From an uncultured Planctomycetia bacterium (lineage in GTDB: Bacteria > Omnitrophota > Gorgyraeia > Gorgyraeales > Gorgyraeaceae), in contig CAYPYS010000001.1 of the NCBI GenBank assembly GCA_964415355.1, forward strand, positions 95,161 to 143,732: a stretch of DNA of 48,572 nucleotides, in the 5' to 3' direction. The notes below the pieces were generated by a model. It did not search any database, was not told the origin of the DNA, and was given only the letters and a program-made list of their open reading frames with translations. Every line of letters begins with the position of its first letter. Within the stretch, counting starts at the first letter, position 1. Positions 278 through 47,630 of this stretch are shown here, piece after piece. Made by a program: the position numbers and the translations under genes.

Positions 278-294
278 TACAACCTCCTGCTTTC

Positions 295-331
295 TAACTT
301 TACATTTCAACAATGTTAAAATGTAAACTTA
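295..331 (+). repeat. Palindromic intergenic repeat R1 (orientation A)
   Basis: TAACTTTACATTTCAACAATGTTAAAATGTAAACTTA. The last 3 nt are the stop codon of the 329-1012 gene. Confidence 0.95.
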
Positions 332-1012
332 GGGGCGGTTTTTCTTCTTAAGATACTTATAGAGAACGGGGACCAGGATAATCATTAATAAAGCAACAAC
401 TGCTATCAAAAATTTTCCCGAGAATATGTCCTTTACGCCTTCTACTTCTCCAAGCGTGCCGCCAAAAAAAGCAGATATCGTGACTCCCGGTATCAAGCCT
501 ACAAGGGTAGCTAAAAAATAATCCTTAAATCTTATCTTAGAAAGACCGCTCGCATAATTAAGTACCTCATAAGGCACTATAGGGATCAATCTAAAAAACA
601 AAATCGTCCCGAATCCACGCCTTTCCAACGAATTGTCCAGATTCTTAAACTTTCCTTTTAAAAATCTTTCTGCTATTTGTCTTCCGAAAAATCTGGATAT
701 AAAAAACGTGCATGATGTGCCAAGCATGGCCCCTATCATTAGATAAACGGCGCCCCAGATCTTTCCAAAAACTAAACCCGCAGCAAGAGAAAGACCGGCT
801 ATAGGCGGGACAATCGAAATAGTGTTCAAAGTATAAGCGATTATATGCACTATAACTGCAAACCGGCCAAAACCCTGTATATAGTCTCTTATGGCTGCTG
901 GGGTAAAGTCCTCCAAGCTAATGCATTGACACTTCACAATCCACCAGACCGATAAAATAACTGCAGCGCCTATAAAAACCCTTATTATATTTTTAAAAAT
1001 TCCCTTGTCCAT
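329..1012 (-). CDS. TVP38/TMEM64 (DedA-related, VTT domain) integral membrane protein
   Basis: 227-aa multi-TM ORF with family-typical FGKIWGAVYLMIGAMLGTSCTFFISRFFGR and LIPIVPYEVLNYASGLS segments. Stop codon lies in repeat R1. Overlaps the upstream gene by 28 nt. Confidence 0.8.
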   Translation of the reverse strand: MDKGIFKNIIRVFIGAAVILSVWWIVKCQCISLEDFTPAAIRDYIQGFGRFAVIVHIIAYTLNTISIVPPIAGLSLAAGLVFGKIWGAVYLMIGAMLGTSCTFFISRFFGRQIAERFLKGKFKNLDNSLERRGFGTILFFRLIPIVPYEVLNYASGLSKIRFKDYFLATLVGLIPGVTISAFFGGTLGEVEGVKDIFSGKFLIAVVALLMIILVPVLYKYLKKKNRP

Positions 1013-1638
1013 TTCGCAACCTCAGCATTTTTATTTTTCTTTAAAGTTCTTTTCAGCTGCGCAAGCGCCTTTACGTCATCTATGTCGTACCATCCTCTAA
1101 GCAACGCTATTTTCTTCTCTAGTTTCTTTGCATTTCCTATGGTAGCACTCAACGCACGGCTTGAACTCCATTTTACACCTTTAAATAAATCTCTACAAAC
1201 ATTTTTAAGCCCTATAGCGTAATAGCCGCCGTCCTGACTTGGGCCCAAGACAACGTCGCTTTTGGTGAGTTTTCGAAAACCTGCCTCGATAAAAGAAGGC
1301 AGCATATCAGGCGAATCACTGCCAATGATAATCGCCTTATGAGACTTCTTGTTATTTGCAAACTTAAAGGCATTGTGCATTCTCTCGCCAAGATTACGGC
1401 CTTTCTGTCTGTAGAATTTAAAGCCCTTGCCTATTTTTTTAAGAAAAGACGGGGCCTTGCTGGATTCGTATGCCATGATCCTTATGTCGCATTTTATACG
1501 CCGAGCAATATCTATGATATCCCTTAAAAACGCTTTATATAAATCCACGCATTCGGATTCGGAGAATCCAGGCAAAAGCCTGGTCTTTACCTTTCCTTTC
1601 TCAGGCTCCTTGGCAAAGATTATAAGGCAGGTCTTCAT
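985..1638 (-). CDS. DUF2064 / TIGR04282-type glycosyltransferase-like protein (family annotated as arsenosugar-biosynthesis associated)
   Basis: N-terminus MKTCLIIFAKEPEKGKVKTRL, plus IIIGSDSPD and GPSQDGGYYAIG motifs. ATGA overlap with the upstream GT2 gene. Confidence 0.7.
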   Translation of the reverse strand: MKTCLIIFAKEPEKGKVKTRLLPGFSESECVDLYKAFLRDIIDIARRIKCDIRIMAYESSKAPSFLKKIGKGFKFYRQKGRNLGERMHNAFKFANNKKSHKAIIIGSDSPDMLPSFIEAGFRKLTKSDVVLGPSQDGGYYAIGLKNVCRDLFKGVKWSSSRALSATIGNAKKLEKKIALLRGWYDIDDVKALAQLKRTLKKNKNAEVAKWTREFLKI

Positions 1639-2309
1639 CTCAAATCACCGTACAGCTTTTTTATAACCCTTGGAGATATTTTAAGCCAAAATAAAATATT
1701 CAACAAAGAATATAAAAGCGCAGTTTTAAATACACCTTTCTGCTCCCATCTCCTCGGAGAAACAAAAATCTTATCCGGCAGGACGACTGCTTTGCCTGTC
1801 TTGCGTAATTTTTTTGTAAACAGTACATCTTCCATCATCAAGACCTCTGGAAAACCGCCTGTTTTAATAAAGGCCTCTTTCGCGACGAATATGCCCTGGT
1901 CGCCGTAAAACACCTTTGTGATCTTCGCGCGCGCGTTTCCAAAGCCCTCGATAAATCTATAGGCAAACCCATCTTTTTCTATGCGCTGCGTTAGGCATCC
2001 GCCTATAACGTTATCTGTTGCAATAATATTTTTAATGGAAGATATCGTATCCGGGGTTACAGCTGTATCAGCGTGTAAAAAAAGCAGGGTATCGCCATGC
2101 GAGGCACGGCCGCCAAGATTCATCTGGAGAGCCCTGCCTTTTGGGGAAGATAGGACGCGTCCGTATTGAGATGCTATTGACCTGCTCCTGTCAGTGCTCG
2201 CTCCGTCTACAAAAATAAGCTCAGCATGCCTGGCCAATTCCAGGAACACAGAAGGATTCCCGGATAAAACCTTTTCTTCGTTATAAATAGGAATAATTAT
2301 GGTGAGCAT
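1635..2309 (-). CDS. Family-2 glycosyltransferase, TIGR04283-like
   Basis: IIIPIYNEE, FVDGASTDRS, LFLHADT and MMEDV motifs of a GT-A fold. Conserved SPRRWE tail region. Translationally coupled to the downstream gene. Confidence 0.7.
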   Translation of the reverse strand: MLTIIIPIYNEEKVLSGNPSVFLELARHAELIFVDGASTDRSRSIASQYGRVLSSPKGRALQMNLGGRASHGDTLLFLHADTAVTPDTISSIKNIIATDNVIGGCLTQRIEKDGFAYRFIEGFGNARAKITKVFYGDQGIFVAKEAFIKTGGFPEVLMMEDVLFTKKLRKTGKAVVLPDKIFVSPRRWEQKGVFKTALLYSLLNILFWLKISPRVIKKLYGDLR

Positions 2310-2322
2310 TAAGATTCGACCC

Positions 2323-2359
2323 TAACTTTACATTTCAACAATGTTAAAGTGTAAAGTTA
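2323..2359 (+). repeat. Palindromic intergenic repeat R2 (A)
   Basis: TAACTTTACATTTCAACAATGTTAAAGTGTAAAGTTA. The arsM stop is 8 nt away. Confidence 0.95.
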
Positions 2360-2367
2360 AGCGACTC

Positions 2368-3165
2368 TTACTTTGTCGCTGAAACTTTTATGCTTACTAC
2401 TGTCTTATCAATGACCTCTATCTCTTGGTCGCTCATATCATTAGCAAGATCACTGATCACTTTATCAGAACCTATATAATCAGAAACGCGCACAGGATCT
2501 TCTTTTATAATATTTACATCTTTAAAACCTGCCCTTTTTATTTTATTTACATAATCTTCCTTCTTTAGCGCCTTGGCAATGCATCCTGCCTGCATCTCCG
2601 GCGATTTTAGAATCTTGTCCGGCAAATCCGCCAGAAGCACCATATCCGACACCATAAGACGCCCGCCTTTTTTCATAATCCTGTATGTTTCGTCAAAGAC
2701 CTTTTGTTTATCATCTGCTAAATTTATAACACAATTGCTGATCACACAGTCCGCAACGGCGCCTTCAAGAGGAATCTCTTCTATATCCCCTAGCTTGAAC
2801 TCAACGTTCTTGGCGCCCACTTCTCTTGCATTCTTCCTGGCCTTCTCGAGCATCTCCTCTGTCATGTCTATGCCAATAACCCTGCCTTTTTCACCAACTT
2901 TTTTCGCAGCCAAAAACGCATCTATACCTCCGCCTGATCCCAGGTCAACCACTGTCTCTCCCTTTTTTAACGAAAGCAATGCCACGGGATTACCGCAGCC
3001 AAGGCCCATATTTGCGCTATCCGGGATAGAATCCAATTCTTCTTTTGTATAACCGACTTTTTCTGAGACACCCGGACTGTTATCGCTGCAACAAGTCGGC
3101 CCGCAGCAGCTTTTCTTTTTCTTCTTTGCAATGCCACCGTATGTCTTTTTTATAAACTCCTTCAT
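2368..3165 (-). CDS. arsM: Arsenite S-adenosylmethionine methyltransferase
   Basis: SAM-binding VVDLGSGGGID. Cysteines in CCGPTCC, GLGCGNP, ISNCVINL and AGCI contexts match the conserved ArsM cysteines. Confidence 0.8.
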   Translation of the reverse strand: MKEFIKKTYGGIAKKKKKSCCGPTCCSDNSPGVSEKVGYTKEELDSIPDSANMGLGCGNPVALLSLKKGETVVDLGSGGGIDAFLAAKKVGEKGRVIGIDMTEEMLEKARKNAREVGAKNVEFKLGDIEEIPLEGAVADCVISNCVINLADDKQKVFDETYRIMKKGGRLMVSDMVLLADLPDKILKSPEMQAGCIAKALKKEDYVNKIKRAGFKDVNIIKEDPVRVSDYIGSDKVISDLANDMSDQEIEVIDKTVVSIKVSATK

Positions 3166-3201: not shown

Positions 3202-3238
3202 TAACTTTACACTTTAACGTTGTTGAAGTGTAAAGTTA
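3202..3238 (-). repeat. Palindromic intergenic repeat R3 (orientation B, the reverse complement of A)
   Basis: TAACTTTACACTTTAACGTTGTTGAAGTGTAAAGTTA. Contains the stop of the PIN-PhoH gene. Confidence 0.95.
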
Positions 3239-4528
3239 GAGGAGTTCTGCGGCTAAGCTGGCTAGGTTGGAACGTTCGTTTTTATCTAAGAGCACATGAC
3301 CAAATATCTCCCGGCCCTTCAGTCTCTCAACCGTATAGCTCAGACCGTTAGACGAAGAATCAAGGTAGGGGCTATCTATTTGATATGGGTCGCCGGTCAA
3401 TACCATCTTGGTATGGTTTCCTGCGCGACTTATAACCGTCTTTATCTCGTGGGGTGTGAGATTTTGAGCCTCGTCGATAATGATGAATTGGTTGGGGATG
3501 CTCCTCCCTCTCATATATGTGAGCGCCTCCAGCTGCAGCAGATCAGTATCCACCAGGTCCTCTATCTTCTCTTTTCTCTTTCTGGCGCTTAATATATATT
3601 CCAGGTTATCGTAAATCGGGTGCATCCAGTTTATAAGCTTTTCTTCTTTTGTGCCGGGGAGATACCCTATGTCTCTCCCCATTGGAATAACAGGTCTTGA
3701 GACAAGCATCCTCTTGTAAGCGTGATCGTTTATTGTTTTTTTCAAACCTGCTGCCAGGGCCAGAAGTGTCTTGCCTGTGCCTGCCTGCCCCACAAGCGTC
3801 ACAAGCGTCACGCTATCGTCCATCAACAGCTCAAGCGCCATCGCCTGCTCCTTGTTCCTGGGCTTTATACCCCATACATTGTTTATATCAGATCTCATCG
3901 GCACCAGGCCTTTTTTCTTAATTGAATATTTTGCGAGCGCAGTATGCTTTCCTTCTAATGAATCCTTTAATAAAACAAACTGGTTCGGCAGCACCTCTTC
4001 GCCTTTTATATCAAGATATTTCTTTTCGTAGAAGCTAGTAACATCTCTTCTCCCCACCACGATCTCTTTCCATCCGCTATATAACTTATCTATATCGACC
4101 TTTTGTTTCTCGAAATCAACGGCTTTTATGCCCAACGCGTCTGCCTTGACCCTCGCATTGATATCCTTTGAGACAAATATGACTCTATTGCCTTTTCGCT
4201 GCAGCCCATACGCGATCATCAATATCCTGTTGTCCTTTTCTTTTTTTAAAAAACCTGACGGCAGCTTGATATCTCCGTCCATAACAATGCGAAGCACGCC
4301 ACCGGTCTTAAGCGCGACCCCTTCGCCCAGCCTACCGCGTATCCTCAGCTCGTCCAGCTTCCTTATGACTGCACGCGCGTTCCTGCCTTTCTCATCATTG
4401 TCCTTTTTGAATATATCCAGCTCCTCGATGACATCTATCGGCAGCACGACCTCATTGTCGGCAAATGATTTTAAGGCTGATGAATCATGGAGCAGCACAT
4501 TTGTATCAAGCACGAATATCTTTCGCAT
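3236..4528 (-). CDS. PIN-domain plus PhoH-like ATPase (YlaK type)
   Basis: N-terminal PIN (FVLDTNVLLHD), Walker A GQAGTGKT, PhoH core. Stop codon lies in repeat R3. Confidence 0.85.
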   Translation of the reverse strand: MRKIFVLDTNVLLHDSSALKSFADNEVVLPIDVIEELDIFKKDNDEKGRNARAVIRKLDELRIRGRLGEGVALKTGGVLRIVMDGDIKLPSGFLKKEKDNRILMIAYGLQRKGNRVIFVSKDINARVKADALGIKAVDFEKQKVDIDKLYSGWKEIVVGRRDVTSFYEKKYLDIKGEEVLPNQFVLLKDSLEGKHTALAKYSIKKKGLVPMRSDINNVWGIKPRNKEQAMALELLMDDSVTLVTLVGQAGTGKTLLALAAGLKKTINDHAYKRMLVSRPVIPMGRDIGYLPGTKEEKLINWMHPIYDNLEYILSARKRKEKIEDLVDTDLLQLEALTYMRGRSIPNQFIIIDEAQNLTPHEIKTVISRAGNHTKMVLTGDPYQIDSPYLDSSSNGLSYTVERLKGREIFGHVLLDKNERSNLASLAAELL

Positions 4529-4559: not shown

Positions 4560-4596
4560 TAACTTTACATTTCAACAACGTTAAAGTGTAAAGTTA
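4560..4596 (+). repeat. Palindromic intergenic repeat R4 (A, consensus copy)
   Basis: TAACTTTACATTTCAACAACGTTAAAGTGTAAAGTTA. Contains the pfkA stop. Confidence 0.95.
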
Positions 4597-5679
4597 CGTG
4601 CCAAAGGAAGTGCCGACTGACAAAGCCGACTTTATTATAGGATCTTTAGGGCTTACTTTTCTAATCGAGTCTGTTGCGTCCTTCAGGCTGACCGCCCTGA
4701 CATCGCGGCCTCTAAGTGCTGTCATCTTTCCAAAGTCTCCGCGCATAACAAGATCGCATGCAAATGTGCCGAAACGGGTAGCCAGCATCCTATCGAACGG
4801 CGAAGGTCCTCCTCCGCGCTGAAGATGCCCGAGCGCAGTCACTCTTGCTTCAAGACCGGTCAACCTCTCGATGTCATTCGCGATCTTATTACCTATGCCG
4901 CCCAGACGCACAGGATCAGTCGAATCCTTGACGATCTTCTTCACAACCATCTTGCCGCCTTTTGGCCTCGCGCCCTCACTCACTACTATAATACTAAACC
5001 TCTTGCCGCACTTATTTCTGTCTATAACCCTCTTGCATATTTTTTTAATATCATACGGGATCTCCGGCAATACAATTACATCTCCGCCGCCTGCCACGCC
5101 TGCATAGAGCGCGAGCCAACCAGCATACCTACCCATCACCTCTATCACCATGACCCTGTGGTGCGACTGGGCTGTCGTGTGCAGCTTGTCAATAGCTTCA
5201 GTCGCTGTCACCACAGCAGAATCAAAACCAATCGTAAAATCGGTTGCTTTTAAATCATTATCTATAGTCTTCGGAATTCCAACCAGTTTAAGTCCTTTTC
5301 TATGCAATCTATAAGCTATGCTGAGTGTGCCATCCCCACCTATACACACAAGGCCATTGAGCCGCATCTTGTCTACATTTATCAAAACGCGATCGGAAAC
5401 GTCTTTAAATTTACCACTTGTAGTTTGATATCTGAAAGGATTTGTCTTATTGGAAGAACCGAGAAATGTCCCGCCTTCAGTCAATATGCCAGAAACATCC
5501 TCATAAGACAAAGGCGTGTATTTATTTTCTATGAGGCCGATATAGCCGTCTCTTATGCCTAAGACCTCGATTTTATAATCAACAATAGCTGCCTTCGCAA
5601 CCGCTCTTATAGCAGCATTAAGGCCAGGGCAATCGCCCCCGCCTGTAAGAACGCCTATTCTTTTCTTACTTCCTTGCAT
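4594..5679 (-). CDS. pfkA: 6-phosphofructokinase
   Basis: GVLTGGGDCPGLNAAIR, GGDGT, PKTIDND and MGRYAGW motifs. Stop codon lies in repeat R4. Confidence 0.85.
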   Translation of the reverse strand: MQGSKKRIGVLTGGGDCPGLNAAIRAVAKAAIVDYKIEVLGIRDGYIGLIENKYTPLSYEDVSGILTEGGTFLGSSNKTNPFRYQTTSGKFKDVSDRVLINVDKMRLNGLVCIGGDGTLSIAYRLHRKGLKLVGIPKTIDNDLKATDFTIGFDSAVVTATEAIDKLHTTAQSHHRVMVIEVMGRYAGWLALYAGVAGGGDVIVLPEIPYDIKKICKRVIDRNKCGKRFSIIVVSEGARPKGGKMVVKKIVKDSTDPVRLGGIGNKIANDIERLTGLEARVTALGHLQRGGGPSPFDRMLATRFGTFACDLVMRGDFGKMTALRGRDVRAVSLKDATDSIRKVSPKDPIIKSALSVGTSFGT

Positions 5680-5734
5680 GGCGCTTGCCTTTTCTCTTCT
5701 TCTTAAGCTTCGCCCTTCTGTTACGTCGCGTCAT
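5666..5734 (-). CDS. Possible 22-codon highly basic micro-ORF (MTRRNRRAKLKKKRKGKRHARK)
   Basis: Own translation. AGGAG lies 4 nt upstream of the ATG at 5734. TAA at 5666-5668 overlaps the pfkA start by 14 nt. Below the ORF-track length cut-off. Confidence 0.25.
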   Translation of the reverse strand: MTRRNRRAKLKKKRKGKRHARK

Positions 5735-5749
5735 TTTTCTCCTTTTCTG

Positions 5750-6115
5750 CTACAAGCTCTTCATTGAAACAAGTATGCCCTTGTGGTATAACTCCAATCG
5801 ATAATCTTTTATGTATCCGTACCTGTCTCTATAAACCCTCGGTACGTTTATCTGTGTCTTGTGCCAACCTCTCTTGATATTGTTGAGGCCTGAACTTGAA
5901 AATGAAAGTTCCGCGCCCTTGCTAAAAGAACAAAAAAGCTTAAATACAAGACCATCCGTCCATTCGTCTTTCGTTTTATAATTTATCTTAAAAATATACC
6001 CTTTGGAACTGCGGATCTTTGAGAGGGTTTCAATGACAGACGTAGCTGCATGAGTCGAGCACGCTAAAGAGAGAAAAATAATTATTGTTATTAAACAACA
6101 AAATGCCCTACGCAT
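5750..6115 (-). CDS. Small secreted protein of unknown family (paralog A)
   Basis: 121 aa with signal peptide MRRAFCCLITIIIFLSLACSTHA. Shares INY.T.D.WTD, SS.LNN..GWHKTQI and LY..G.L blocks with the ORF at 6172-6561. Has its own near-consensus promoter. Confidence 0.7.
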   Translation of the reverse strand: MRRAFCCLITIIIFLSLACSTHAATSVIETLSKIRSSKGYIFKINYKTKDEWTDGLVFKLFCSFSKGAELSFSSSGLNNIKRGWHKTQINVPRVYRDRYGYIKDYRLELYHKGILVSMKSL

Positions 6116-6127
6116 ATATACATTTGA

Positions 6128-6156
6128 ATTATACTGTCAGGCTAGATAATAGTCAA
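6128..6156 (-). promoter_or_regulatory. sigma70-type promoter of paralog A
   Basis: TTGACT-N17-TATAAT on the minus strand. The -10 ends 12 nt before the ATG at 6115 and no SD is present. Confidence 0.7.
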
Positions 6157-6171
6157 GATTTTTTGGAAGGC

Positions 6172-6561
6172 TTAATAATTTTTCTTGCTGTCAATAAGCA
6201 CGCCGTTTTTATAGAGGTCGATCTTGTATTCACGCAAGGAACCGTATCTTTTTTTCATGGTGTCTGAGATCGCTATCTGCGTCTTGTGCCAACCCTTCTC
6301 AACGTTATTAAGGGAACTGCTGGCAAATGTAAACTCTCCTCTGTCAAACTTACAATGGACCTTAAAAAGAAGATTATCAGTCCATTTATCGCGCGTCTGA
6401 TAGTTTATAAGAATAACGTACCCGCCCATTCTATGGATCTTCATGGCGCCTTTTATGGCCACTGAATCTGCAAATGAATTTTGTAGGGGGAATGACAGGA
6501 CAGAGATCAGCGTTGCAAAAATTATTAAAAATTTCGCGATTTTCACTCGTGGCAAGCACAT
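6172..6561 (-). CDS. Small secreted protein of unknown family (paralog B)
   Basis: The track ORF starts at 6597. I prefer the ATG at 6561 (MCLPRVKIAKFLIIFATLISVLS...) because AGGAAGGA lies 7 nt upstream, whereas the 6597 ATG abuts a U7 tract. Roughly half the residues are identical to paralog A, by eye. Confidence 0.65.
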   Translation of the reverse strand: MCLPRVKIAKFLIIFATLISVLSFPLQNSFADSVAIKGAMKIHRMGGYVILINYQTRDKWTDNLLFKVHCKFDRGEFTFASSSLNNVEKGWHKTQIAISDTMKKRYGSLREYKIDLYKNGVLIDSKKNY

Positions 6562-6604
6562 ACTTTCATCCTTCCTAATATGCCCTAAAATGAGCATAAA
6601 AAAA

Positions 6605-6718
6605 TCGAAGGAATGGGTACGCGGTCTTTCGGCAACCCAGCCGCCTTACCCTAACTGGCTTAGGCCTGTGGCTTTGCGTCCCAATCTTTCGATCAGTTTG
6701 CCTTTTCGGTTTTACCCG
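6605..6718 (-). promoter_or_regulatory. c-di-GMP-I (GEMM-I) riboswitch upstream of secreted-protein paralog B
   Basis: Minus-strand RNA: GGGUAAAACCGAAAAGGCAAACUGAUCGAAAGAUUGGGACGCAAAGCCACAGGCCUAAGCCAGUUAGGGUAAGGCGGCUGGGUUGCCGAAAGACCGCGUACCC. It contains the GEMM-I hallmarks as I remember them from the V. cholerae Vc2 aptamer: GGCAAAC, a GAAA-capped hairpin, GGGACGCAAAGCC, the CCUAAG...UAAGG tetraloop-receptor halves, and GGGUUGCC closing P1. A U7 tract (6598-6604) and an anti-SD-like UCCUUC follow. Confidence 0.85.
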
Positions 6719-6736
6719 AAAATTAATAAAGACTTT

Positions 6737-7531
6737 TTAGAGGAACTCGATCTGGGAAGGATCATTAAGGATTATCTCGCAATCGCCTTTATATTCTTTG
6801 ATTACGCCATAGACCCTTATTGTCTTATGCTTGAAATAGGTATCCGGAGAGCGCGAAGCCATTTTGGGGAAATACCCTAGATTATTTTTGAATATAACGA
6901 CCTTAAAATTGCCCAGGCAGTTCAATGTCAAGACGCGATCTGATAAATAAGTGCTTAGCACCCTGGCCTCCACCATTCTAATCATGCCTACATTATCCTG
7001 GGCCTCATAGGGCGATATAATTTTTTCTTCCATTTCGCCCCATAGCCCCCTGTTGTCTTCCCTGGCCTCTTTTTGGGCAACCAAAAAATCATCCACATGT
7101 TTCACGTTCGGAGGATAAGTATATATCATCGCATAACCCTGCCTGACCATTTCCATATTAGCCATAACATCATCCTGATACACATACGCGAGGATACGGC
7201 CATATTTATCTCTCTTTTGGACATCGAATTTCAACCTGATATCCTTCCCTTCCACAAGCTTGCGATTAAAATCCTTTGCCTCCTCTGCATAGGGCATCGG
7301 GTCGTAAATCCATCCAGCGCCTTTTCTCTTTCGCAGCTCAGGCGTATCTATTCCTATATAACGCACCTTCTCGCCGCTGGAAAGCTCTAAAGTATCGCCG
7401 TCGACTACATGCGACACGTAAACGTCTTTATTATAATCTGCGAAATGAAGCGGCAAGCGCTGCAAAAGCCTTACTATTGCAAAGCCGGCAACAAGAAAAA
7501 CTATTATTATCAGAATGCATTTTTTCTTCAT
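6737..7531 (-). CDS. Thermonuclease (SNase) family nuclease with N-terminal signal/anchor and an extra C-terminal domain
   Basis: HVVDGDTLELSSGEKVRYIGIDTPE, KDIRLKFD...RDKYGRILAYVY and GLWG motifs of staphylococcal-nuclease-like proteins. Hydrophobic N-terminus. Confidence 0.8.
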   Translation of the reverse strand: MKKKCILIIIVFLVAGFAIVRLLQRLPLHFADYNKDVYVSHVVDGDTLELSSGEKVRYIGIDTPELRKRKGAGWIYDPMPYAEEAKDFNRKLVEGKDIRLKFDVQKRDKYGRILAYVYQDDVMANMEMVRQGYAMIYTYPPNVKHVDDFLVAQKEAREDNRGLWGEMEEKIISPYEAQDNVGMIRMVEARVLSTYLSDRVLTLNCLGNFKVVIFKNNLGYFPKMASRSPDTYFKHKTIRVYGVIKEYKGDCEIILNDPSQIEFL

Positions 7532-7598: not shown

Positions 7599-7635
7599 TA
7601 AGTTTACACTTTAACATTGTTGAAATGTATACTTA
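7599..7635 (-). repeat. Palindromic intergenic repeat R5 (B, variant)
   Basis: TAAGTTTACACTTTAACATTGTTGAAATGTATACTTA. Exact reverse complement of R18. Contains the stop of the PilZ gene. Confidence 0.95.
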
Positions 7636-9642
7636 GTCGATAGGGAACATCAATGGATTGTAATTATGCATGGCGAAAATCGTGTATGCAGTGCCGGCGG
7701 CTGACCCTGTCCTCGAGCCCTTTGCTATCCTCCAGCCGTGACCAGTATCGACATTGTCCTGCGAGGCATAAGGAAGGCACCCCTCGCCCTGACCTACCCG
7801 AGAAGGACTGACGATCATCATTTTCTGAAGTTCGGAAAGATAAAAATCCGCCTTTATCTTATAATAATCTGCTTTTATGGTGTCTCCTATCGACTCGCTG
7901 TACCCTGCCATCATATTCAACGACACCACCATCTGCGCTGTCCACTCTGTTGAAACAACCCCGCCTCTTGCCAAGTTCGTATTTTTTCCAAAATCAAAAC
8001 CTGTTATCTTCAGATGCTCGCCGTCAGGCCTTTTATAAGTAACATTGACATGACAATTCTCCTCTGCGAAATCCATAATCTGTCCCGGATCCATGCCTGA
8101 CTCTTTGAGGGTCTTCGGCCCGATAGCCGCAATGGCCCACGCGAACGTATCTGTCGCAATAGTGGCATCGCCCTTCCCCCTATTAAGCCTATTTTCTTTA
8201 TTATTATAGGCGTGATCCTTGATCCATTTCAATGTCCTGCCCTGAGCTGACCTGTATTTATTGTCTTTTGTCACTTCGTACAGCATCCCAAAAAATGCAT
8301 AGGCATCCAGATTATGTTCGGTGCTGAACCATGAAAACTTTGGCCCGCCTCTTATCCCAAACTGCGCATCTTCTTCCTGCAATAAAATCAGCCAGTCAGC
8401 TATGTCTTTTGCGACCGAAAGATATTGCTCATCCTTAAACTTATCAGTGTATTGCAAGACAGCCAGGCCGATCCAAATATTGGGCCCGCTGTGAACAGCA
8501 TATTCCACAACCTTCCCGGTATACGCGTCATAACCATTGACATAGCCGCCTTTTACCTTTTCAGCCTTGTCCTTATAAAAATCCAATATCTTTTGCGCGT
8601 TCTCCTGGTCACCCATCAAGGTGAAACACTGGGCTGCCAGAGACTGGTCATAAGTAAACGCCCAATCCTCGATATCCTTATCGCCCTCGAAACTCACCAC
8701 CAGCCCTGTCAAAAAATTCTGGTGATTCTTGATCCATCTATACATGCTCAATACGCCTCTTTCCTCTATTTCTGTAAAAGAAGGCAGAAACTCTTTTAAG
8801 GCGTCCTTCGCTGAAATCCTTTTCTGCGAAAGCCTGGTTACTTTATCTTTCAAATCAGATGTCTCGTTCGACAAGATATTTACCTTTTTCAGAAGCCTTG
8901 CTTTTTCAAGAAGCGCTTCCTTGAGTCTTTTCTTAGTAACCCCTCTATCCTGTTCGAAGTATTCGAGTATCTTATCTTTTCTCTTGAGTTCAGCACTTAG
9001 CGCCTTCAGTTCATTGACTTTTCCCCAGTATTCCTTGATCATCTTCTCGTTCTCTAAAATCTCTTCTTCCAGGGCCTCACGCTCGCTGCCGGACTCGATA
9101 ATACTATGTTCGAGCTCAGACTTCTTCTGAGAGAGCTCCACGAGCTCACGGACCAGCCGGACATTTTCCCTTCTCAGTTTAAAATCAGAGCTATAAAAAA
9201 AGGCAAGGCCTGTTATTAGGAATAAAACCAGGATCGAAACGATCTTCGGGGTCAAAGATATCCTTCGAGCGTGAAAATAGATCTTTTTCCTGGCCCTTGG
9301 GTCTATCTCTAAAAATGAAAGGCCGATGAGATATTTATTAGGATAGCTTCCTTTTATTTTTTTATACCAGGCAATGCCGGCTATAGCCTTTGTTCCTCTA
9401 TGGCTTAGCGGGATATTAAGATTCAGTTCTAGTTTAGCCTTTTGTTCGGCTACGATGTCTTCAAATTTCTCTTCCAGATTATTGACCTCTAAGCAGATAC
9501 CGCCCTTGCCCACGTCCCTCGTAAAACCCTGCTTGACCTCGCCAATTACTTCTCCTGTTGCCTGGTCTAAAAATTGAAATTCGACAGGGAACACAGCATG
9601 CAGCCTGATATATTTTCTCTGTTCAATATTTTTATTTTTCAT
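7633..9642 (-). CDS. PilZ domain - TM helix - coiled coil - (alpha/alpha)6-like C-terminal domain protein
   Basis: N-terminal RxxxR (QRKYIR) and D.G..G (RDVGKGGI) PilZ motifs. TM segment SILVLFLITGLAFFY. Long heptad-like E/K-rich segment. The C-terminal 350 aa have the look of a six-hairpin glycosidase-like fold. Stop codon lies in repeat R5. Confidence 0.7.
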   Translation of the reverse strand: MKNKNIEQRKYIRLHAVFPVEFQFLDQATGEVIGEVKQGFTRDVGKGGICLEVNNLEEKFEDIVAEQKAKLELNLNIPLSHRGTKAIAGIAWYKKIKGSYPNKYLIGLSFLEIDPRARKKIYFHARRISLTPKIVSILVLFLITGLAFFYSSDFKLRRENVRLVRELVELSQKKSELEHSIIESGSEREALEEEILENEKMIKEYWGKVNELKALSAELKRKDKILEYFEQDRGVTKKRLKEALLEKARLLKKVNILSNETSDLKDKVTRLSQKRISAKDALKEFLPSFTEIEERGVLSMYRWIKNHQNFLTGLVVSFEGDKDIEDWAFTYDQSLAAQCFTLMGDQENAQKILDFYKDKAEKVKGGYVNGYDAYTGKVVEYAVHSGPNIWIGLAVLQYTDKFKDEQYLSVAKDIADWLILLQEEDAQFGIRGGPKFSWFSTEHNLDAYAFFGMLYEVTKDNKYRSAQGRTLKWIKDHAYNNKENRLNRGKGDATIATDTFAWAIAAIGPKTLKESGMDPGQIMDFAEENCHVNVTYKRPDGEHLKITGFDFGKNTNLARGGVVSTEWTAQMVVSLNMMAGYSESIGDTIKADYYKIKADFYLSELQKMMIVSPSRVGQGEGCLPYASQDNVDTGHGWRIAKGSRTGSAAGTAYTIFAMHNYNPLMFPID

Positions 9643-9690: not shown

Positions 9691-9727
9691 TAACTTTACA
9701 TTTCAACAACGTTAAAATGTAAAGTTA
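9691..9727 (+). repeat. Palindromic intergenic repeat R6 (A), between divergent promoters
   Basis: TAACTTTACATTTCAACAACGTTAAAATGTAAAGTTA. Confidence 0.95.
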
Positions 9728-9766: not shown

Positions 9767-10177
9767 ATGAGGGCTGATTGCAAGAAAAATTCTGGTTTTA
9801 CACTGCTCGAGCTTATGATAGGCGTATGCATATTGATCGTGGGATTAGTGGCACTCATATCTGCCTATATCGGATGTTTTGCATTGAATGAAAGCGCGAG
9901 AAACCTTACTATTGCAACAAACCATGCCCAATGCGTAATGGAAGAGATCCGGGACTACAATATCCCATCCAATATCACGCAGGAAGACTGGACAGCTTGG
10001 GCGGCAGCAGATCTTCCGACTGGCGGCGGTTGCAATACCCTCGATACTGAATCGATTAATGTAACATATCCTTCGGGCACAGGCACGAACCCTTTAGAAA
10101 TCCTGGTTACAGTCAACTGGTCTGAAAAAAATAGATCGCGCAGCGTCCAGTTCTCTACGCTGCTGACAGAGCGATAA
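9767..10177 (+). CDS. Prepilin-type N-terminal cleavage/methylation domain protein (pseudopilin)
   Basis: KKNSG/FTLLELMIGVCILIVGL gives the canonical G-1, F+1, E+5 prepilin peptidase site. Confidence 0.8.
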   Translation: MRADCKKNSGFTLLELMIGVCILIVGLVALISAYIGCFALNESARNLTIATNHAQCVMEEIRDYNIPSNITQEDWTAWAAADLPTGGGCNTLDTESINVTYPSGTGTNPLEILVTVNWSEKNRSRSVQFSTLLTER

Positions 10178-10180
10178 GAG

Positions 10181-10627
10181 ATGAAAACCATTAAAGCCAT
10201 TACCTTAATCGAATTAATGATCGCGCTGGCCATATTCTCGATAATCCTCGGAGCTATCTATAGCGTATTGAATATGGGTCGGGCATCTTATTATACTGGC
10301 GATATCCAGATAGCAGTACAGCAAGAAGCGCGCAAGGCAATGGATAAGATGACCCGGGAAATACGGGAAGCCAGCTCTGTCAATCTCAGCGATGATTATC
10401 CTTTTGCAGTCGAGGCAAACCGCATAAAATACGAAGTCAATAGCGGACAGCTACAGAGAATTGTTCAGGGAGGATCGACCACTGTCTTGGCAAACGATGT
10501 TGGAAATGTTCAGTTTACTCTGATAGGCGGAGATATGGTGTATATAACATTAACAACGCAAAAAAATACTGTGCTCGGAAGAAGCTTGAGCGCTGATTTG
10601 ACCTCTCAAGTCAACCTGAGAAATTAA
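10181..10627 (+). CDS. Minor pseudopilin (PilW/GspJ-like)
   Basis: N-terminal AITLIELMIALAIFSII prepilin-like segment with E+5. Only a 3-nt gap to the upstream gene. Confidence 0.7.
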   Translation: MKTIKAITLIELMIALAIFSIILGAIYSVLNMGRASYYTGDIQIAVQQEARKAMDKMTREIREASSVNLSDDYPFAVEANRIKYEVNSGQLQRIVQGGSTTVLANDVGNVQFTLIGGDMVYITLTTQKNTVLGRSLSADLTSQVNLRN

Positions 10628-10631
10628 AACC

Positions 10632-11924: not shown

Positions 11925-11927
11925 ACT

Positions 11928-12408: not shown

Positions 12409-12414
12409 TAATGC

Positions 12415-12450
12415 TAACTTTACATTTCAACAATGTTAAAAGTATACTTA
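12415..12450 (+). repeat. Palindromic intergenic repeat R7 (A, 36 nt, degenerate right arm), in the marR 5' UTR
   Basis: TAACTTTACATTTCAACAATGTTAAAAGTATACTTA. Confidence 0.9.
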
Positions 12451-12483
12451 GGCTAGCAAACCTTGACATACCAGGAGGTCTTT

Positions 12484-14390: not shown

Positions 14391-14407
14391 CTGCGGATTT
14401 AAGTGCC

Positions 14408-14459: not shown

Positions 14460-14496
14460 GACATTACATCTTAAGCCAAACAAGGGGTAATATCTT

Positions 14497-34380: not shown

Positions 34381-34417
34381 TAACTTTACATTTCAACAAC
34401 GTTAAAGTGTAAAGTTA
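34381..34417 (+). repeat. Palindromic intergenic repeat R23 (A)
   Basis: Identical to R4. Contains the stop of the CPBP gene. Confidence 0.95.
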
Positions 34418-35470: not shown

Positions 35471-35507
35471 TAACTTTACACTTTAACGTTGTTGAAATGT
35501 AAAGTTA
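35471..35507 (-). repeat. Palindromic intergenic repeat R24 (B)
   Basis: Identical to R14. tatD reads into it (NFTFQQR*). Confidence 0.95.
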
Positions 35508-37428: not shown

Positions 37429-37465
37429 TAACTTTACATTTCAACAACGTTAAAGTGTAAAGTTA
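37429..37465 (+). repeat. Palindromic intergenic repeat R25 (A)
   Basis: Identical to R4. Contains the metG stop. Confidence 0.95.
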
Positions 37466-39015: not shown

Positions 39016-39052
39016 TAACTTTACACTTTAACGTTGTTGAAATGTAAAGTTA
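39016..39052 (-). repeat. Palindromic intergenic repeat R26 (B)
   Basis: Identical to R14. Contains the stop of the PSP1 gene. Confidence 0.95.
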
Positions 39053-39861: not shown

Positions 39862-40830
39862 CTAGCTCCTCTTCAACTCGACAGCCAGATTAAAAAGCGC
39901 TATCTTGGGGTTTGCATTCCTTCTGGTGTATTCAATCGCCTTCATTATGTTAAAAAGATCTCTCTCTAGCTTATCTTTTGTAAACCTGTTTGAATATGAG
40001 GAGATCTCGCTAAATCTATCTACGTTTAAAATTTCGTTTGATTCCTGCGTGAATTTCGATATAAAGATATCCCTGTACCAGCACAGAAGTATATATAAAG
40101 TCTCCTCTATGTCTTCACTGACCTGCTCCTTCAACACAGCCTCTCTCAATAGTGCGCTTTTTCTGAAAAAAAAGTCATTGACCACCTGGTTCCGTCGGGA
40201 AATCAAATCATTCTCTTTGAAAGACAATGCCCTGCCGATCGAGCCCATTGCCATATGCGAAAATAAAATCGCTTCTTCTTCCTCGATATCGCGAGTCATC
40301 AAAAATTCTCTGATCTGACCGCCCGGAAGCAGATTAAACCTCAATATTTTGCATCGCGAAATAACAGTGGGCAGAAGGCCTGCCAGGCTAGAGGCAGTCA
40401 ATATCATAACATGGTTCTCGGGGGGTTCCTCTAAAAGTTTCAAAAAGGCATTCTGCGCCTCGATAGTCGCGGTCTCGGCTTCATTTATAATAAAAATCCT
40501 CTTTTTTGCCTCGTATGGTTTTAAGCTCGCCTGATAAATAATATCCCGTATCTTCTCGATCTTTATCGAACCTGACGGGCCTTCGGGAAAAACGCAAAAG
40601 ACATCCGGATGGTTTCCGGATTCTATCTTATTACAAGAGACGCAATCACAAGAGGCACCACTGAGATATCTCTCGCAATTTATTGCCTTGGCGAATTCAA
40701 TACCTGCAGTTCGCTTCCCAACTCCGTCAGGACCCAAAAATAAATAGGTCCCCCTGACCTGTTTTCTTGCAATTATATTCTTAAGCGCCCTGACAGCCAC
40801 ATCTTGTCCGATTATCTTATTAAACGACAT
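39862..40830 (-). CDS. holB: DNA polymerase III subunit delta prime
   Basis: YLFLGPDGVGKRT Walker-like motif, CxxCxxC zinc module, SRC motif (VISRCKIL). Confidence 0.8.
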   Translation of the reverse strand: MSFNKIIGQDVAVRALKNIIARKQVRGTYLFLGPDGVGKRTAGIEFAKAINCERYLSGASCDCVSCNKIESGNHPDVFCVFPEGPSGSIKIEKIRDIIYQASLKPYEAKKRIFIINEAETATIEAQNAFLKLLEEPPENHVMILTASSLAGLLPTVISRCKILRFNLLPGGQIREFLMTRDIEEEEAILFSHMAMGSIGRALSFKENDLISRRNQVVNDFFFRKSALLREAVLKEQVSEDIEETLYILLCWYRDIFISKFTQESNEILNVDRFSEISSYSNRFTKDKLERDLFNIMKAIEYTRRNANPKIALFNLAVELKRS

Positions 40831-40840
40831 TATCAGTCCC

Positions 40841-40877
40841 TAAGTTTACATTTCAACAACGTTAAAGTGTAAAGTTA
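40841..40877 (+). repeat. Palindromic intergenic repeat R27 (A, TAAG left end)
   Basis: TAAGTTTACATTTCAACAACGTTAAAGTGTAAAGTTA. Contains the tmk stop. Confidence 0.95.
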
Positions 40878-41492
40878 GCAAATGCAATCTAATACTATTT
40901 TACGTATCTTTTCCTGTGTCTCAGCTATCTCTCCGAGAGCAGAGACAACTTTTACGCGACGCGGCTCTTTCTTTGCAATGCTAAGATATCCTTTTCTTAC
41001 CTTTTTATGATACGAGAGCGATTTTTTTTCCATCCTGTCTTTGTTTCCGGTAGAACGCGAAAGCCCCTTTTTTGCGTCTATGTCTAATATAAAGGTGATG
41101 TCGGGTTTTATTCCATTAGTAGTAAGTCTGCCTATGTCTTTTATTAATCTTACATCAAGTCCTCCGGCATATCCCTGATAGGCCATGGTAGCGTCCATAA
41201 ATCTATCGCATATCACTATCTTTCCTTTTCTTAAAGCTGGTAGGATCTTTTCTCTTACTATCTGCGCTCGCGCAGCCATATATAAAAGCAATTCGCACAC
41301 TACATCCATGCCCTTGTTCCTGGGATCCAGCAAAACCTTTCTTATCTTCTCGCTGACTACAGTCCCTCCTGGCTCGCGCGTGTGCAAGACCTTCAGGCCC
41401 TGTTTTTTAAGAAACTCACACAAGAGTCGAGAGTGAGTGCTCTTGCCGCTCCCCTCCGGCCCTTCAAAAGTTATAAATAACTTTCTCTTCAC
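40875..41492 (-). CDS. tmk: dTMP kinase
   Basis: FITFEGPEGSGKST P-loop and the DRF motif. Stop codon lies in R27. Confidence 0.9.
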   Translation of the reverse strand: MKRKLFITFEGPEGSGKSTHSRLLCEFLKKQGLKVLHTREPGGTVVSEKIRKVLLDPRNKGMDVVCELLLYMAARAQIVREKILPALRKGKIVICDRFMDATMAYQGYAGGLDVRLIKDIGRLTTNGIKPDITFILDIDAKKGLSRSTGNKDRMEKKSLSYHKKVRKGYLSIAKKEPRRVKVVSALGEIAETQEKIRKIVLDCIC

Positions 41493-41505: not shown

Positions 41506-41542
41506 TAACTTTACATTTTAACGTTGTTGAAATGTAAAGTTA
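41506..41542 (-). repeat. Palindromic intergenic repeat R28 (B-like, symmetrised left arm)
   Basis: TAACTTTACATTTTAACGTTGTTGAAATGTAAAGTTA. Contains the cysS stop. Confidence 0.95.
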
Positions 41543-43455: not shown

Positions 43456-43492
43456 TAACTTTACATTTCAACAACGTTAAAGTGTAAAGTTA
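43456..43492 (+). repeat. Palindromic intergenic repeat R29 (A)
   Basis: Identical to R4. Contains the ispD stop. Confidence 0.95.
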
Positions 43493-44186: not shown

Positions 44187-44223
44187 TAAGTTTACACTTT
44201 AACATTGTTGAAATGTAAAGTTA
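44187..44223 (-). repeat. Palindromic intergenic repeat R30 (B, variant)
   Basis: TAAGTTTACACTTTAACATTGTTGAAATGTAAAGTTA. Contains the stop of the PIN/TRAM gene. Confidence 0.95.
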
Positions 44224-45240: not shown

Positions 45241-45241
45241 C

Positions 45242-45273
45242 TAAGTCCCCCTTATATCATTATTGTAAAGTTA
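45242..45273. repeat. Degenerate remnant of the palindromic repeat (R31)
   Basis: TAAGTcccccttatatcattatTGTAAAGTTA. Only the outer 5 nt of one arm and 10 nt of the other are recognisable. Still provides the mlaD stop codon. Confidence 0.6.
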
Positions 45274-45999: not shown

Positions 46000-46016
46000 T
46001 GTTTACCTCCCTCTCT

Positions 46017-46766
46017 CTATACCGTTTCAGTCATAGGTCCCTTGGCGGCACCTGTTATAAACTGTTTTACCAGCGGGTCCTTTGTATTCTTTATCTGCTT
46101 AACCGGCCCTACCTCAACAATCTTTCCGTTATAAAGCATAGCTACTCTGTCTGCCACCTTATAAGCACTCACCATGTCGTGCGTGACAACAATAGAGGTC
46201 ACCTTTAATTTTTTGTTCAGATCTATAATGAGTTCGTTTATCGCGTCCGCGCCTATAGGATCCACGCCTGTTGTAGGCTCATCGTATAAAATAATCTTTG
46301 GGTCATTACATATTGCCCTTGCCAGGCCTACGCGCTTTCTCATTCCTCCGCTCAATTCAGCAGGCATTAGTTCTTCTATGTCTTTTAGTCCTACCATTGC
46401 CAGAGACCTTGTAACCTTTTTGCGTATGTCGCTCTCCGGTGTATCAGTGTGCTCCCTTAAAGCAAAACTGACATTTTCATACACTGTCAATGAATCAAAA
46501 AGCGCGGCTCCCTGAAAAAGCATGCCGAAAGTCAGTCGCAATCTATCTAACTGCTTCTCATCCATCCTGCCGACATCTGTCCCGTCTATTATGACCTGGC
46601 CAGAGTCTGGCTTGAGAAGTCCTATGGCATGTTTTAACAAAACACTCTTGCCGCAACCCGAACGCCCAATGATGACCATGGTCTCTCCGGAATTTATGGT
46701 GAGGTTCAGGTTTTCCAGGACTCTATTGCCGCCGAACGATTTTGATAAATTTATTATCTCTATCAT
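46017..46766 (-). CDS. mlaF: ABC transporter ATP-binding protein (MlaF-like)
   Basis: Walker A GRSGCGKS, signature LSGGMRKR, Walker B ILYDEPT. Confidence 0.85.
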   Translation of the reverse strand: MIEIINLSKSFGGNRVLENLNLTINSGETMVIIGRSGCGKSVLLKHAIGLLKPDSGQVIIDGTDVGRMDEKQLDRLRLTFGMLFQGAALFDSLTVYENVSFALREHTDTPESDIRKKVTRSLAMVGLKDIEELMPAELSGGMRKRVGLARAICNDPKIILYDEPTTGVDPIGADAINELIIDLNKKLKVTSIVVTHDMVSAYKVADRVAMLYNGKIVEVGPVKQIKNTKDPLVKQFITGAAKGPMTETV

Positions 46767-46770
46767 AGTT

Positions 46771-47553
46771 TTATGGGAACATGAAATAAAACAGGGCGGT
46801 GAACAAGCAATCCGCCATAATGATTAAAATAAATGAGGTCACGACTGAAAGTGTCGTGGCCTTGCCCACGCCTTCAGCGCCCCCTTCTGTCCTGAAACCT
46901 TCATAGCACGAGACAATGCATATTATCATCGCGAATACAAAAGACTTAAAAAGTCCTGTGAATACATCCTTGAACATCAATGGATCGTATGTCATCTTTA
47001 TGTATATAGTAGAGCCTATCAGCAGTTTATATACACCTATGATATAACCTCCTATTATCCCCAGAAAATCAGCGTATATGGTTAGTATTGGCAGCATGAG
47101 ACAAAGCGCTAAAAATCTAGGCACCACCAGATACTTTACTGGATTTGCAGAGAGGGTCTCTAGGGCGTCTATCTGTTCTGTCACTTTCATCGTGCCAAGC
47201 TCAGCTGTAATACTGGCCCCTACCCTGCCAGCTACTACCAGAGCAGTCAACACAGGGCCCAGCTCTCTGACCATTGACAGTGCAACAAGGCTCGATATAT
47301 AGATCTGCGCGTTCATCTTGGTGAGCTGATAGGCACTTTGAAGCGCGAGCACCATGCCTGTAAAGAAAGAGACAAGAAAGACAATAGGAAAACTCAGCAC
47401 GCCGATCTTATACAGCTGCATTGCAAATTCTTTTCTCCTGAAAGGCGGCACGAATATATGAAAGAGGGTGCTTACAGAAAGATGAAACATCCCGCCTATA
47501 TAGGTAAAGAAGTTCAGCGACTTATTGCCTAATGACTTGATCAGTTTTTTCAT
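46771..47553 (-). CDS. mlaE: MlaE family ABC transporter permease
   Basis: 260-aa polytopic protein with MlaE-typical RELGPVLTALVVAGRVGASITAELGTMKVTEQIDAL. Confidence 0.85.
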   Translation of the reverse strand: MKKLIKSLGNKSLNFFTYIGGMFHLSVSTLFHIFVPPFRRKEFAMQLYKIGVLSFPIVFLVSFFTGMVLALQSAYQLTKMNAQIYISSLVALSMVRELGPVLTALVVAGRVGASITAELGTMKVTEQIDALETLSANPVKYLVVPRFLALCLMLPILTIYADFLGIIGGYIIGVYKLLIGSTIYIKMTYDPLMFKDVFTGLFKSFVFAMIICIVSCYEGFRTEGGAEGVGKATTLSVVTSFILIIMADCLFTALFYFMFP

Positions 47554-47573
47554 ACTAGCACCATGGTTTCTCC

Positions 47574-47610
47574 TAACTTTACACTTTAACGTTGTTGAAA
47601 TGTAAAGTTA
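47574..47610 (-). repeat. Palindromic intergenic repeat R32 (B)
   Basis: Identical to R14. The upstream gene's stop is 20 nt away, with a small GGCC..GGCC hairpin in between. Confidence 0.95.
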
Positions 47611-47630
47611 GGCCAAATTCGGCCTATTTG

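Follow-up and report, generated by a model that had tools for sequence, protein, structure and literature searches.

Repetitive extragenic palindromic (REP) sequences are operationally defined as short (14-40 nt), palindromic, extragenic and transcribed sequences that have a shared consensus and occur in many copies (PMC12306157). The tagged REP superfamilies carry GTAG or CGTC at one end and have stems of about 6-13 bp, and REP termini that supply stop codons to flanking open reading frames (ORFs) have already been described (PMC3733652). Here we analyze a stretch of 48,572 nucleotides (assembly GCA_964415355.1, contig CAYPYS010000001.1, positions 95,161 to 143,732 of the forward strand), termed the window, which falls in Candidatus Omnitrophota according to its MetG and IlvB homologues. 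In a first-pass annotation of this DNA an imperfect palindrome of 37-39 nt had been noticed at almost every gene boundary. We consider it probable, at roughly 65%, that this repeat is a miniature, non-autonomous foldback mobile element of the REP or MITE (miniature inverted-repeat transposable element) kind.

The 37-nt consensus TAACTTTACATTTCAACAACGTTAAAGTGTAAAGTTA served as the reference motif for scans of the window. Allowing up to 3 mismatches, it has 26 matches, compared to 0 in 100 shuffles, and with up to 10 mismatches in an ungapped search 30 sites are recovered. With its filters switched off, a covariance model trained on 79 aligned copies from the window and its relatives identifies 31 distinct sites in the 48.6 kb. 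These are 29 aligned copies, a site with a 1-nt indel (12413-12452) and a site with a matching 1-nt deletion in both arms (21664-21702). A decayed remnant fills the 30-nt spacer 45241-45270, and the terminus that it has kept, GTAAAGTTA, has its end at 45273, in the stop codon of a gene encoding an MlaD domain. The 32 copies counted in the first-pass annotation therefore correspond to 31 covariance-model sites and this remnant, and the chance expectation for full copies in 48.6 kb is none. The four exact copies claimed for the minus strand were recovered, whereas the ten claimed for the plus strand are in fact nine. With about one copy per 1.5 kb, the repeat covers approximately 2.4% of the window (31 x 37 nt), as had been estimated. 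Assembly artefacts do not explain it: different samples, assembled independently, agree at 99.99% identity across the repeats, and orthologous copies vary between species.

The fold described earlier, a 17-bp stem that contains a T:G wobble and a C:A mismatch and closes a loop of 3 nt, is correct, and the stem reaches 19 bp with the usual C...G flank. In most copies the palindrome is longer by 1-2 bases per side (C-C-TAAC...GTTA-G-G), and across the family the element measures 37-41 nt. The copies have a GC content of 24-32%, and the predicted RNA hairpin has a dG of -13 to -18 kcal/mol in either orientation, with a z-score of -5 to -6. In the alignment of 79 copies 91% of the cells are paired and the mean column identity is 90%. 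TAA is found at positions 1-3, 23-25 and 30-32 of the element and at 14-16 in the other orientation, and each of the three frames has a stop within the element in both orientations. That this closure of all frames is a designed feature was rejected: a rough estimate puts its chance at about 28% in an AT-rich 37-mer, so that it is functionally relevant but statistically unremarkable. The copies in the window are listed below.

295-331, plus strand: copy whose TTA at 329-331 reads TAA on the minus strand and serves as stop codon of the VTT-domain gene 329-1012.
2323-2359, plus strand: copy 8 nt past the stop of 2368-3165 and 13 nt ahead of the start of 1635-2309.
3202-3238, minus strand: copy giving its stop to the PhoH/PIN gene 3236-4528.
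4560-4596, plus strand: exact copy giving its stop to the PFK gene 4594-5679.
7599-7635, minus strand: copy of the TAAGTATACA subtype, giving its stop to 7633-9642.
9691-9727, plus strand: copy in the divergent intergenic region between 7633-9642 and 9767-10177.
12415-12450, plus strand: copy lacking 1 nt of the right arm, 61 nt past the stop of 11928-12353 and 12 nt ahead of a MarR gene.
17608-17644, plus strand: copy between convergent genes, giving its stop to the AcrB-like gene 14497-17610.
18117-18153, plus strand: copy in the divergent intergenic region between 17655-18062 and 18165-18791.
19918-19954, plus strand: exact copy at pilD/aroC, where relatives have a spacer of 3 nt.
20756-20792, minus strand: copy entered by aroE (20761-21612), which ends at an internal TAA (offset 29).
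21666-21700, minus strand: copy of the 35-nt subtype (1 nt deleted at matching places in the two arms), giving its stop to leuA.
23254-23290, plus strand: exact copy giving its stop to ilvC (23288-24277).
24316-24352, minus strand: exact copy at ilvN/ilvC, orthologous to a G-type copy in the related locus L107.
24857-24893, minus strand: G-type copy, the inner member of the only tandem pair (ilvB/ilvN).
24900-24936, plus strand: copy giving its stop to ilvB (24934-26604).
26629-26665, plus strand: exact copy at ilvD/ilvB.
28438-28474, plus strand: copy of the TAAGTATACA subtype at greA/ilvD; L107 holds a 110-nt relative at the same site.
30095-30131, plus strand: copy giving its stop to the tsaB-like gene 30129-30815.
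30825-30861, plus strand: exact copy giving its stop to tsaE (30859-31266).
31276-31312, minus strand: copy giving its stop to the thiL-like (AIRS) gene 31310-32212; position and subtype are shared with L100 and L104.
33223-33259, plus strand: exact copy giving its stop to a DUF362 gene.
34381-34417, plus strand: exact copy giving its stop to an Rce1-like gene; the site is empty in L101.
35471-35507, minus strand: exact copy entered by tatD (35483-36316), which ends at an internal TAA (offset 22).
37429-37465, plus strand: exact copy giving its stop to metG; L100 has a G-type copy at this site and L101 none.
39016-39052, minus strand: exact copy giving its stop to a PSP1 gene.
40841-40877, plus strand: copy giving its stop to tmk; tmk and holB overlap here in relatives.
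41506-41542, minus strand: copy giving its stop to cysS.
43456-43492, plus strand: exact copy giving its stop to ispD.
44187-44223, minus strand: copy giving its stop to a YCF81/PIN gene.
45241-45273, minus strand: decayed remnant (TAACTTTACAATAATGATATAA... on the minus strand), which begins at the MlaD-domain gene stop at 45271-45273 and fills the 30-nt spacer.
47574-47610, minus strand: exact copy 20 nt past the stop of 47631-48536, adjoining a GC-rich hairpin at 47609-47626.

Every copy sits at a gene boundary, and 29 of the 48 gene junctions in the window are occupied (about 60%). The unoccupied ones are overlaps or gaps of up to 17 nt, the remnant site and four long spacers (5680-5749, 6116-6171, 6598-6736 and 14391-14496), exactly those that had been reported to lack a copy. 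One of them, 6598-6736, is free of the repeat because it is occupied by a cyclic di-GMP-I riboswitch. In 19 of 31 copies the terminal TAA of the element is the stop codon of the upstream gene, and in two further copies, at aroE and tatD, an internal TAA serves as such. The element thus supplies 21 of the 49 stop codons in the window (38 TAA, 7 TAG and 4 TGA), and 21 of 31 copies overlap the upstream ORF by the stop codon or more. The distance from the element to the next start is 9-20 nt in 19 cases, with a median of about 15 nt, which leaves room for a Shine-Dalgarno sequence only. The recurring order is gene, TAA in the element, hairpin, Shine-Dalgarno sequence and ATG, and the orientation relative to transcription shows no bias (15:12). 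The genes of the window are all housekeeping genes, and the operon-like clusters within which copies had been placed, ilvD-ilvB-ilvN-ilvC-leuA and ispD-ispF-cysS-tmk-holB, are real.

The repeat is not confined to the window. Five more copies were found in the 10 kb to the left of it, and a scan of genome collections detected the pattern in at least three species of metagenome-assembled genomes (MAGs) among the matches listed. One of these, a sister MAG, has at least 17 contigs with the repeat, in line with the claim that this is a dispersed family and not a local duplication. Moreover, loci of two sister species, which were fetched via their proteins and hence without bias towards repeats, contain one copy per 1.6-2.8 kb; the DNA identity of the two species to the window is 85.5% and 81.7%, respectively. 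No canonical copy was detected in relatives with a MetG identity of about 80% or less (L102, L103, which is Ca. Gorgyraea atricola, and L105), nor was the repeat found in any of 80 more distant loci from a CysS-anchored metagenome scan (relatives of at most 62% identity). Viral contigs and plasmid and phage records yielded no meaningful match. Rfam returned only the cyclic di-GMP-I riboswitch in the window at gathering thresholds, and one chance microRNA hit at E<=1, and literature searches for the repeat sequence and for repeats of Omnitrophota gave no match. It had been suspected that the sequence fits no catalogued family, and these searches agree with that. As far as the searched literature shows, the sequence and the density of the repeat are new, while the kind of element, REP or MITE, is already known.

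Orthologous junctions were then compared between genomes, in all of which the gene order is conserved. In relatives devoid of the repeat the genes at these junctions either overlap (ATGA) or are separated by 1-15 nt, and filled junctions are longer by 34-35 nt than empty ones. The junctions metG/AT5, Rce1/DUF362, ilvB/ilvN, ilvN/ilvC, pilD/aroC, OEP/acrB and tmk/holB are filled in one species and empty in another. ilvC/leuA is filled in all three species, at offsets from the stop of 0, 6 and 17 nt, and at ilvN/ilvC, cysS/tmk, leuA/aroE and tsaE/tsaB a copy of another subtype or orientation sits at the same position. In the sister-species locus L004 a single copy gives TAA to both genes of a convergent pair. 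AIRS/tsaE is the sole junction at which the subtype is kept in all three species, with 1-3 of 37 nt differing, compared to about 20% in the flanks. The species of L101 and L108 is the closest to the window by identity, yet it is without copies that are common to the window and the more distant species of L100 and L107; losses by deletion must therefore occur. At tmk/holB (40830-40900) and pilD/aroC (19900-19970) the genes of the relatives share a segment: either their ends overlap or a Shine-Dalgarno sequence lies within the upstream gene. This segment is found in the window on both sides of the element, as a flanking duplication of 9-18 nt and of variable length. Gain, loss, displacement and replacement of the element have all taken place at orthologous junctions within this small Candidatus Omnitrophota clade. 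Recent or repeated spread, which had been proposed from the window, is borne out as well, since species with 82-86% DNA identity do not agree on whether an orthologous junction holds a copy, nor on the position, subtype and orientation of the copies.

The family has internal structure. In the 79 copies, which stem from several species, 19 of 41 columns are invariant, and changes on both sides are seen at 7 of 19 stem pairs (e.g., C:G to G:C at pair 6:36 in 17 sequences, and T:A to C:G at pair 9:33). Of 65 distinct sequences, 53 retain the C.A mismatch. Several subtypes recur at more than one locus, namely a C-type (CTAAC...), a G-type (CTTAAG...), a TATAC-type and the subtype with a matching 1-nt deletion in both arms, which is present at at least three loci. 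This recurrence shows that variant masters have been copied, each of them yielding several copies. Decayed copies exist too.

Four related loci (L103, L105, L107 and L109) contain rare elements of 38-110 nt that have the same termini of about 10 nt, TAA[C/G]TTTACA..., and unrelated interiors; L103 and L105 are among the relatives that lack the canonical 37-mer. Together with a foldback of L100 they are listed below.

L105: elements with the same termini at 585-622 (GC-rich interior), at 6789-6832 and from 12303 onward.
L103, 7299-7374: element of 76 nt with the same termini, on the cysS stop codon.
L109, 15759-15801: element with the same termini and compensated CTGACAC...GTGTCAG arms.
L107, 8094-8276 (greA/ilvD) and 11672-11774 (ilvB/ilvN), and L100, 11096-11205: foldbacks that have the same outer ends, CTTAAGTT...AACTTAAG, and the interior CAAAAATAGGGACAGACACCTATTTTT in common; they span 88-110 nt, the L107 elements being 88 and 110 nt long.

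The L107 foldback at greA/ilvD takes the site of the 37-nt copy of the window. Since the termini are kept whatever the spacing of the arms, the conserved part is the base of the stem, about 10 bp long. The variable spacing in turn points to recognition of each terminus or of the hairpin base, and not to a dimer that binds duplex DNA. In the MAG UBA10183 two independent copies end in CAAC...GTTG, which indicates that the outer TAA/TTA is part of the element and not a duplicated TA target; one of them encodes the last ten residues of GlyQ.

How does the repeat compare with the systems described above? Like REPs and REP doublets forming hairpins (REPINs), it is a short (20-40 nt), imperfect and largely extragenic palindrome with a shared consensus and many copies, found between co-directional as well as convergent genes. 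REP families likewise have hundreds of copies each, subfamilies with complementary stem changes and termini that provide stops (PMC3733652, PMC12306157). The repeat differs from them in its symmetric ends, Y-TAA(C/G)...(G/C)TTA-R, with neither GTAG nor CGTC in the alignment, and in its stem of 17-19 bp instead of 6-13 bp. Its copies are nearly all singletons, whereas REPs form dimers or bacterial interspersed mosaic elements (BIMEs). Moreover, no REP-associated tyrosine transposase (RAYT) was found in the DNA searched for one. The density also differs, as REPs of Escherichia coli occur about once per 8 kb, compared to about once per 1.5 kb here. The statement that the repeat is not a REP thus holds for the one-sided GTAG or CGTC tag and a known RAYT, both of which are absent, and fails for the operational definition, which the repeat fits by its shortness, palindromic form, location at gene boundaries, single consensus and many copies.

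With MITEs and the Correia elements of Neisseria the repeat shares its presumed non-autonomous nature, conserved terminal inverted repeats (TAA(C/G)TTTACA in the 37-mer and in the elements of 38-110 nt) and variable interiors. They, too, enter the intergenic parts of operons and, as mRNA, fold into long hairpins. Unlike these elements, the repeat consists of termini only (37-41 nt), has no demonstrable duplication of TA or any other target, and has neither a known parent insertion sequence nor sequence similarity to these elements. Rickettsia palindromic elements (RPEs) resemble it in that coding is tolerated, the C-termini of aroE, tatD and the glyQ of UBA10183 being encoded by the repeat. 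RPEs, however, are 100-150 nt long and lie in frame inside genes, whereas the repeat closes every frame and sits at gene ends.

As a mobile element, the repeat would consist of two inverted termini of 17-19 nt joined by a 3-nt loop. It may be copied from the hairpin, probably via a single-stranded DNA intermediate, by an enzyme that would act in trans, be encoded outside of the window and recognize the stem base 5'-TAA(C/G)TTTACA.../...TGTAAA(G/C)TTA-3'. A single-strand enzyme of the HUH/Y1 (RAYT-like) type would fit best, with a DDE transposase that binds terminal inverted repeats as the alternative; the former is favored because the arms are only 3 nt apart, because no target duplication is demonstrable and because the stem mismatch is conserved, all of which is indirect evidence. 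In an ancestral genome with overlapping genes or spacers of 1-15 nt, insertions would be tolerated nowhere but in the stretch from a stop codon to the Shine-Dalgarno sequence that follows. With TAA at both ends and stops in every frame the element could sit on, or replace, the native stop, and slippage between the native TAA and that of the element could remove the leftover spacer (compare ilvC/leuA in the three species). The closed frames and TAA ends, together with ancestral junctions that overlapped or had 1-15 nt spacers, account for the position at coding ends. Survival in a compact genome and slippage are thus compatible explanations of the regular position, neither of which needs an RNA function. 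The fixed position relative to coding ends that had been described is seen as a regular layout, for which this simpler explanation is available; none of the functions offered with it (3' end stabilizer, processing site, terminator or attenuator, protein binding site) gained support here. In mRNA the predicted hairpin would begin at the stop codon, and any effect on expression would be secondary.

Several points weigh against a mobile element. The gene calls of related loci, the additional 10 kb and the window itself yielded no transposase of any kind. For the window this agrees with the first-pass annotation and is based on Pfam and NCBIfam annotation of all its proteins, which did not reveal an integrase or a HUH protein either. 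A phmmer search with E. coli RayT against all frames of 232 kb of repeat-bearing DNA, which amounts to a single distant query and a small fraction of the genomes, returned nothing. Thus, no RAYT is seen in the window, in L110 or in the 232 kb of repeat-bearing loci, and no unpaired terminus adjoins a transposase gene in the examined loci. There is also no target-site duplication that is separable from the palindrome. G-type copies fit a duplication of TA, TTAA or CTTAAG. C-type pairs of filled and empty sites read TAA[C...GTTA]GG and TAA|GG, and a TA target duplication as in IS630/Tc1-like elements was rejected since these pairs (metG/AT5 and Rce1/DUF362) and the CAAC...GTTG copies do not fit it. 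Furthermore, the near-constant copy at AIRS/tsaE could reflect selection instead of recent copying, the "empty" sites of L101 and L108 may be deletions and not sites that were never filled, and the genome-specific subtypes of orthologous copies (e.g., at ilvN/ilvC) require gene conversion or re-insertion at the same site.

The alternative that survives best, unlikely as we consider it, is a domesticated punctuation of cistrons, in which a selected RNA element marks gene boundaries and transposition is only the means of delivery. The element might supply stops, be a processing site for RNase III or another enzyme, stabilize 3' ends or regulate termination and re-initiation. This would be consistent with the very regular geometry, in which the stop inside the element is followed by a Shine-Dalgarno sequence and by ATG 9-16 nt past the element, with the 19 of 41 invariant columns and the paired changes that keep the stem, with the near-constancy of the AIRS/tsaE copy in three species and with the stability of the predicted RNA hairpin in both orientations. 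There is also a precedent, in that E. coli REPs at most 15 nt away from a stop codon affect translation and the fate of the mRNA, according to work cited in PMC12306157. However, close relatives manage without the element at the same junctions, where some of their genes overlap, and occupancy, offset, subtype and orientation vary between sister species. Copies are also found in divergent promoter regions (9691 and 18117), decayed and disrupted ones are tolerated, and the geometry follows from where insertions survive in a compact genome. A selected role in the punctuation of mRNAs is therefore improbable in our view. Still less probable is its stronger form, a genome-wide cistron punctuation mark at which multi-gene transcripts would be cut or stabilized or ribosomes passed on to the next Shine-Dalgarno sequence, or else a hairpin-templated spread aimed at stop codons, by a mechanism that has no relation to RAYT or DDE enzymes.

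Far less credible than punctuation is a signal in double-stranded DNA, either a site for a dimeric chromosomal protein or a DNA uptake sequence (DUS) that has spread by drive, like the DUS pairs of Neisseria. Uptake sequences of Neisseria and Haemophilus reach a density similar to one per 1.5 kb, the species have their own "dialects" of the repeat, and genes for Type IV pili are present in the window. Against this, the copies are clean insertions of 34-35 nt relative to empty sites and not products of point mutation, and the termini in relatives lie 38-110 nt apart, unlike what a dimer on duplex DNA would demand. In addition, solo 7-mer termini number 7 + 7, compared to about 8 expected per orientation by our own estimate. 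Single arms are thus at about chance level, and the DNA uptake sequence was rejected on this ground.

That the copies are intrinsic terminators or attenuators, or contain promoters, can scarcely be upheld. A stable hairpin is predicted directly after coding regions, but its stem is AT-rich (24-32% GC) and no copy is found in a terminator scan, which agrees with the earlier remark that a U tract is lacking and speaks against the terminator or attenuator function offered with it. Copies also lie within conserved operons (ispD-ispF and tmk-holB), where termination would be harmful. A promoter with TTTACA as its -35 box was rejected: no copy passes a sigma-70 scan, the spacing to the candidate -10 box is 19 nt, and promoter-like hits are no commoner than in shuffles.

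The least plausible alternative is an integron attC-like site marking gene cassettes: like attC sites and the Vibrio cholerae repeats (VCRs), the element is an imperfect palindrome with a conserved stem mismatch at the 3' end of nearly every gene, and the attC cores RYYYAAC/GTTRRRY are similar to its C-type ends, (G)CCTAAC...GTTAGG(C), but the genes here have housekeeping roles and keep their order in relatives that lack the element, the G-type ends (CTTAAG...) do not fit the cores, 37-41 nt is shorter than known attC sites, and no integrase is encoded in the window. Clustered regularly interspaced short palindromic repeats (CRISPR) were considered and rejected.

To our knowledge, the repeat is among the densest small-repeat invasions of a bacterial genome, and it occurs in a poorly known, uncultured phylum. 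The clade offers a natural experiment, as sister species that are 82-86% identical in DNA differ in which junctions hold the element, whereas more distant relatives have no copies and have overlapping genes. From such a series one can learn how compact operons are colonized by palindromic repeats, at what cost, and whether the repeats later acquire a use. Termini that are kept while the interiors vary provide a handle for finding the mobilizing enzyme. Should the element have been recruited as a punctuation mark, gene expression in this lineage would depend on it. On the practical side, the repeats probably break metagenome assemblies, and they shift the called starts and ends of genes.

Examples of the latter are false starts that gene callers put inside the element, as at tatD/Rce1 in L100 and aroE/pilD in L108. 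Scaffold gaps of 100 N are present in L101 (1337-1436) and L104 (1312-1411, 3920-4019 and 13455-13554). The L101 gap and at least the L104 gap at 3920-4019 sit at junctions that are filled by the repeat in the window, and the repeats probably break short-read assemblies. The MAG that contains L100, L107 and L002-L017 (GCA_964445715, CAYULJ01) encodes proteins 90-94% identical to those of the window. Its title, "uncultured Planctomycetia", is probably a mislabel; the other relatives of the window are all labeled Omnitrophota.

Other hairpin repeats were observed at the same kind of site. A second, unrelated family of small hairpins, ATCCCCGCGAAAGCGGGGAT and ATTCCCGTTTACACGGGAAT, is found in the window at 14391-14496 and in the PSP1/metG and tsaE/tsaB spacers of L100. 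The junction that it takes up at 14391-14496 has the 37-mer in the sister species represented by L004, and the small hairpin recurs in that species. L102 has its own unrelated intergenic repeat, ...aacttgatatagtaggaaatgcctttttaagtcgttgtaggggcgtcattt..., at two junctions (PSP1/metG and AIRS/tsaE), and L103 has "aaatcccaaa" palindromes in its PSP1/metG, alr/greA and tmk/holB spacers. The colonization of junctions by hairpin repeats thus seems to be general in the clade.

Finally, the window contains some features of other kinds. Two small ORFs without a Pfam or NCBIfam match (6172-6597 and 5750-6115) have the cyclic di-GMP-I riboswitch (6628-6712, minus strand; 81.6 bits, E 1e-14) upstream of them. 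The GC-rich hairpin TAGGCCGAATTTGGCCTA at 47609-47626, which abuts the copy at 47574-47610, is among the few terminator-like scan matches. A minor-pilin cluster on the plus strand (9767-12353) is characterized by the N-terminal methylation motif, PilX_N and a PilV-like protein; its genes are 3-4 nt apart, with no repeat inside the cluster, and a gene for a prepilin peptidase is found at 19970-20743 on the minus strand.

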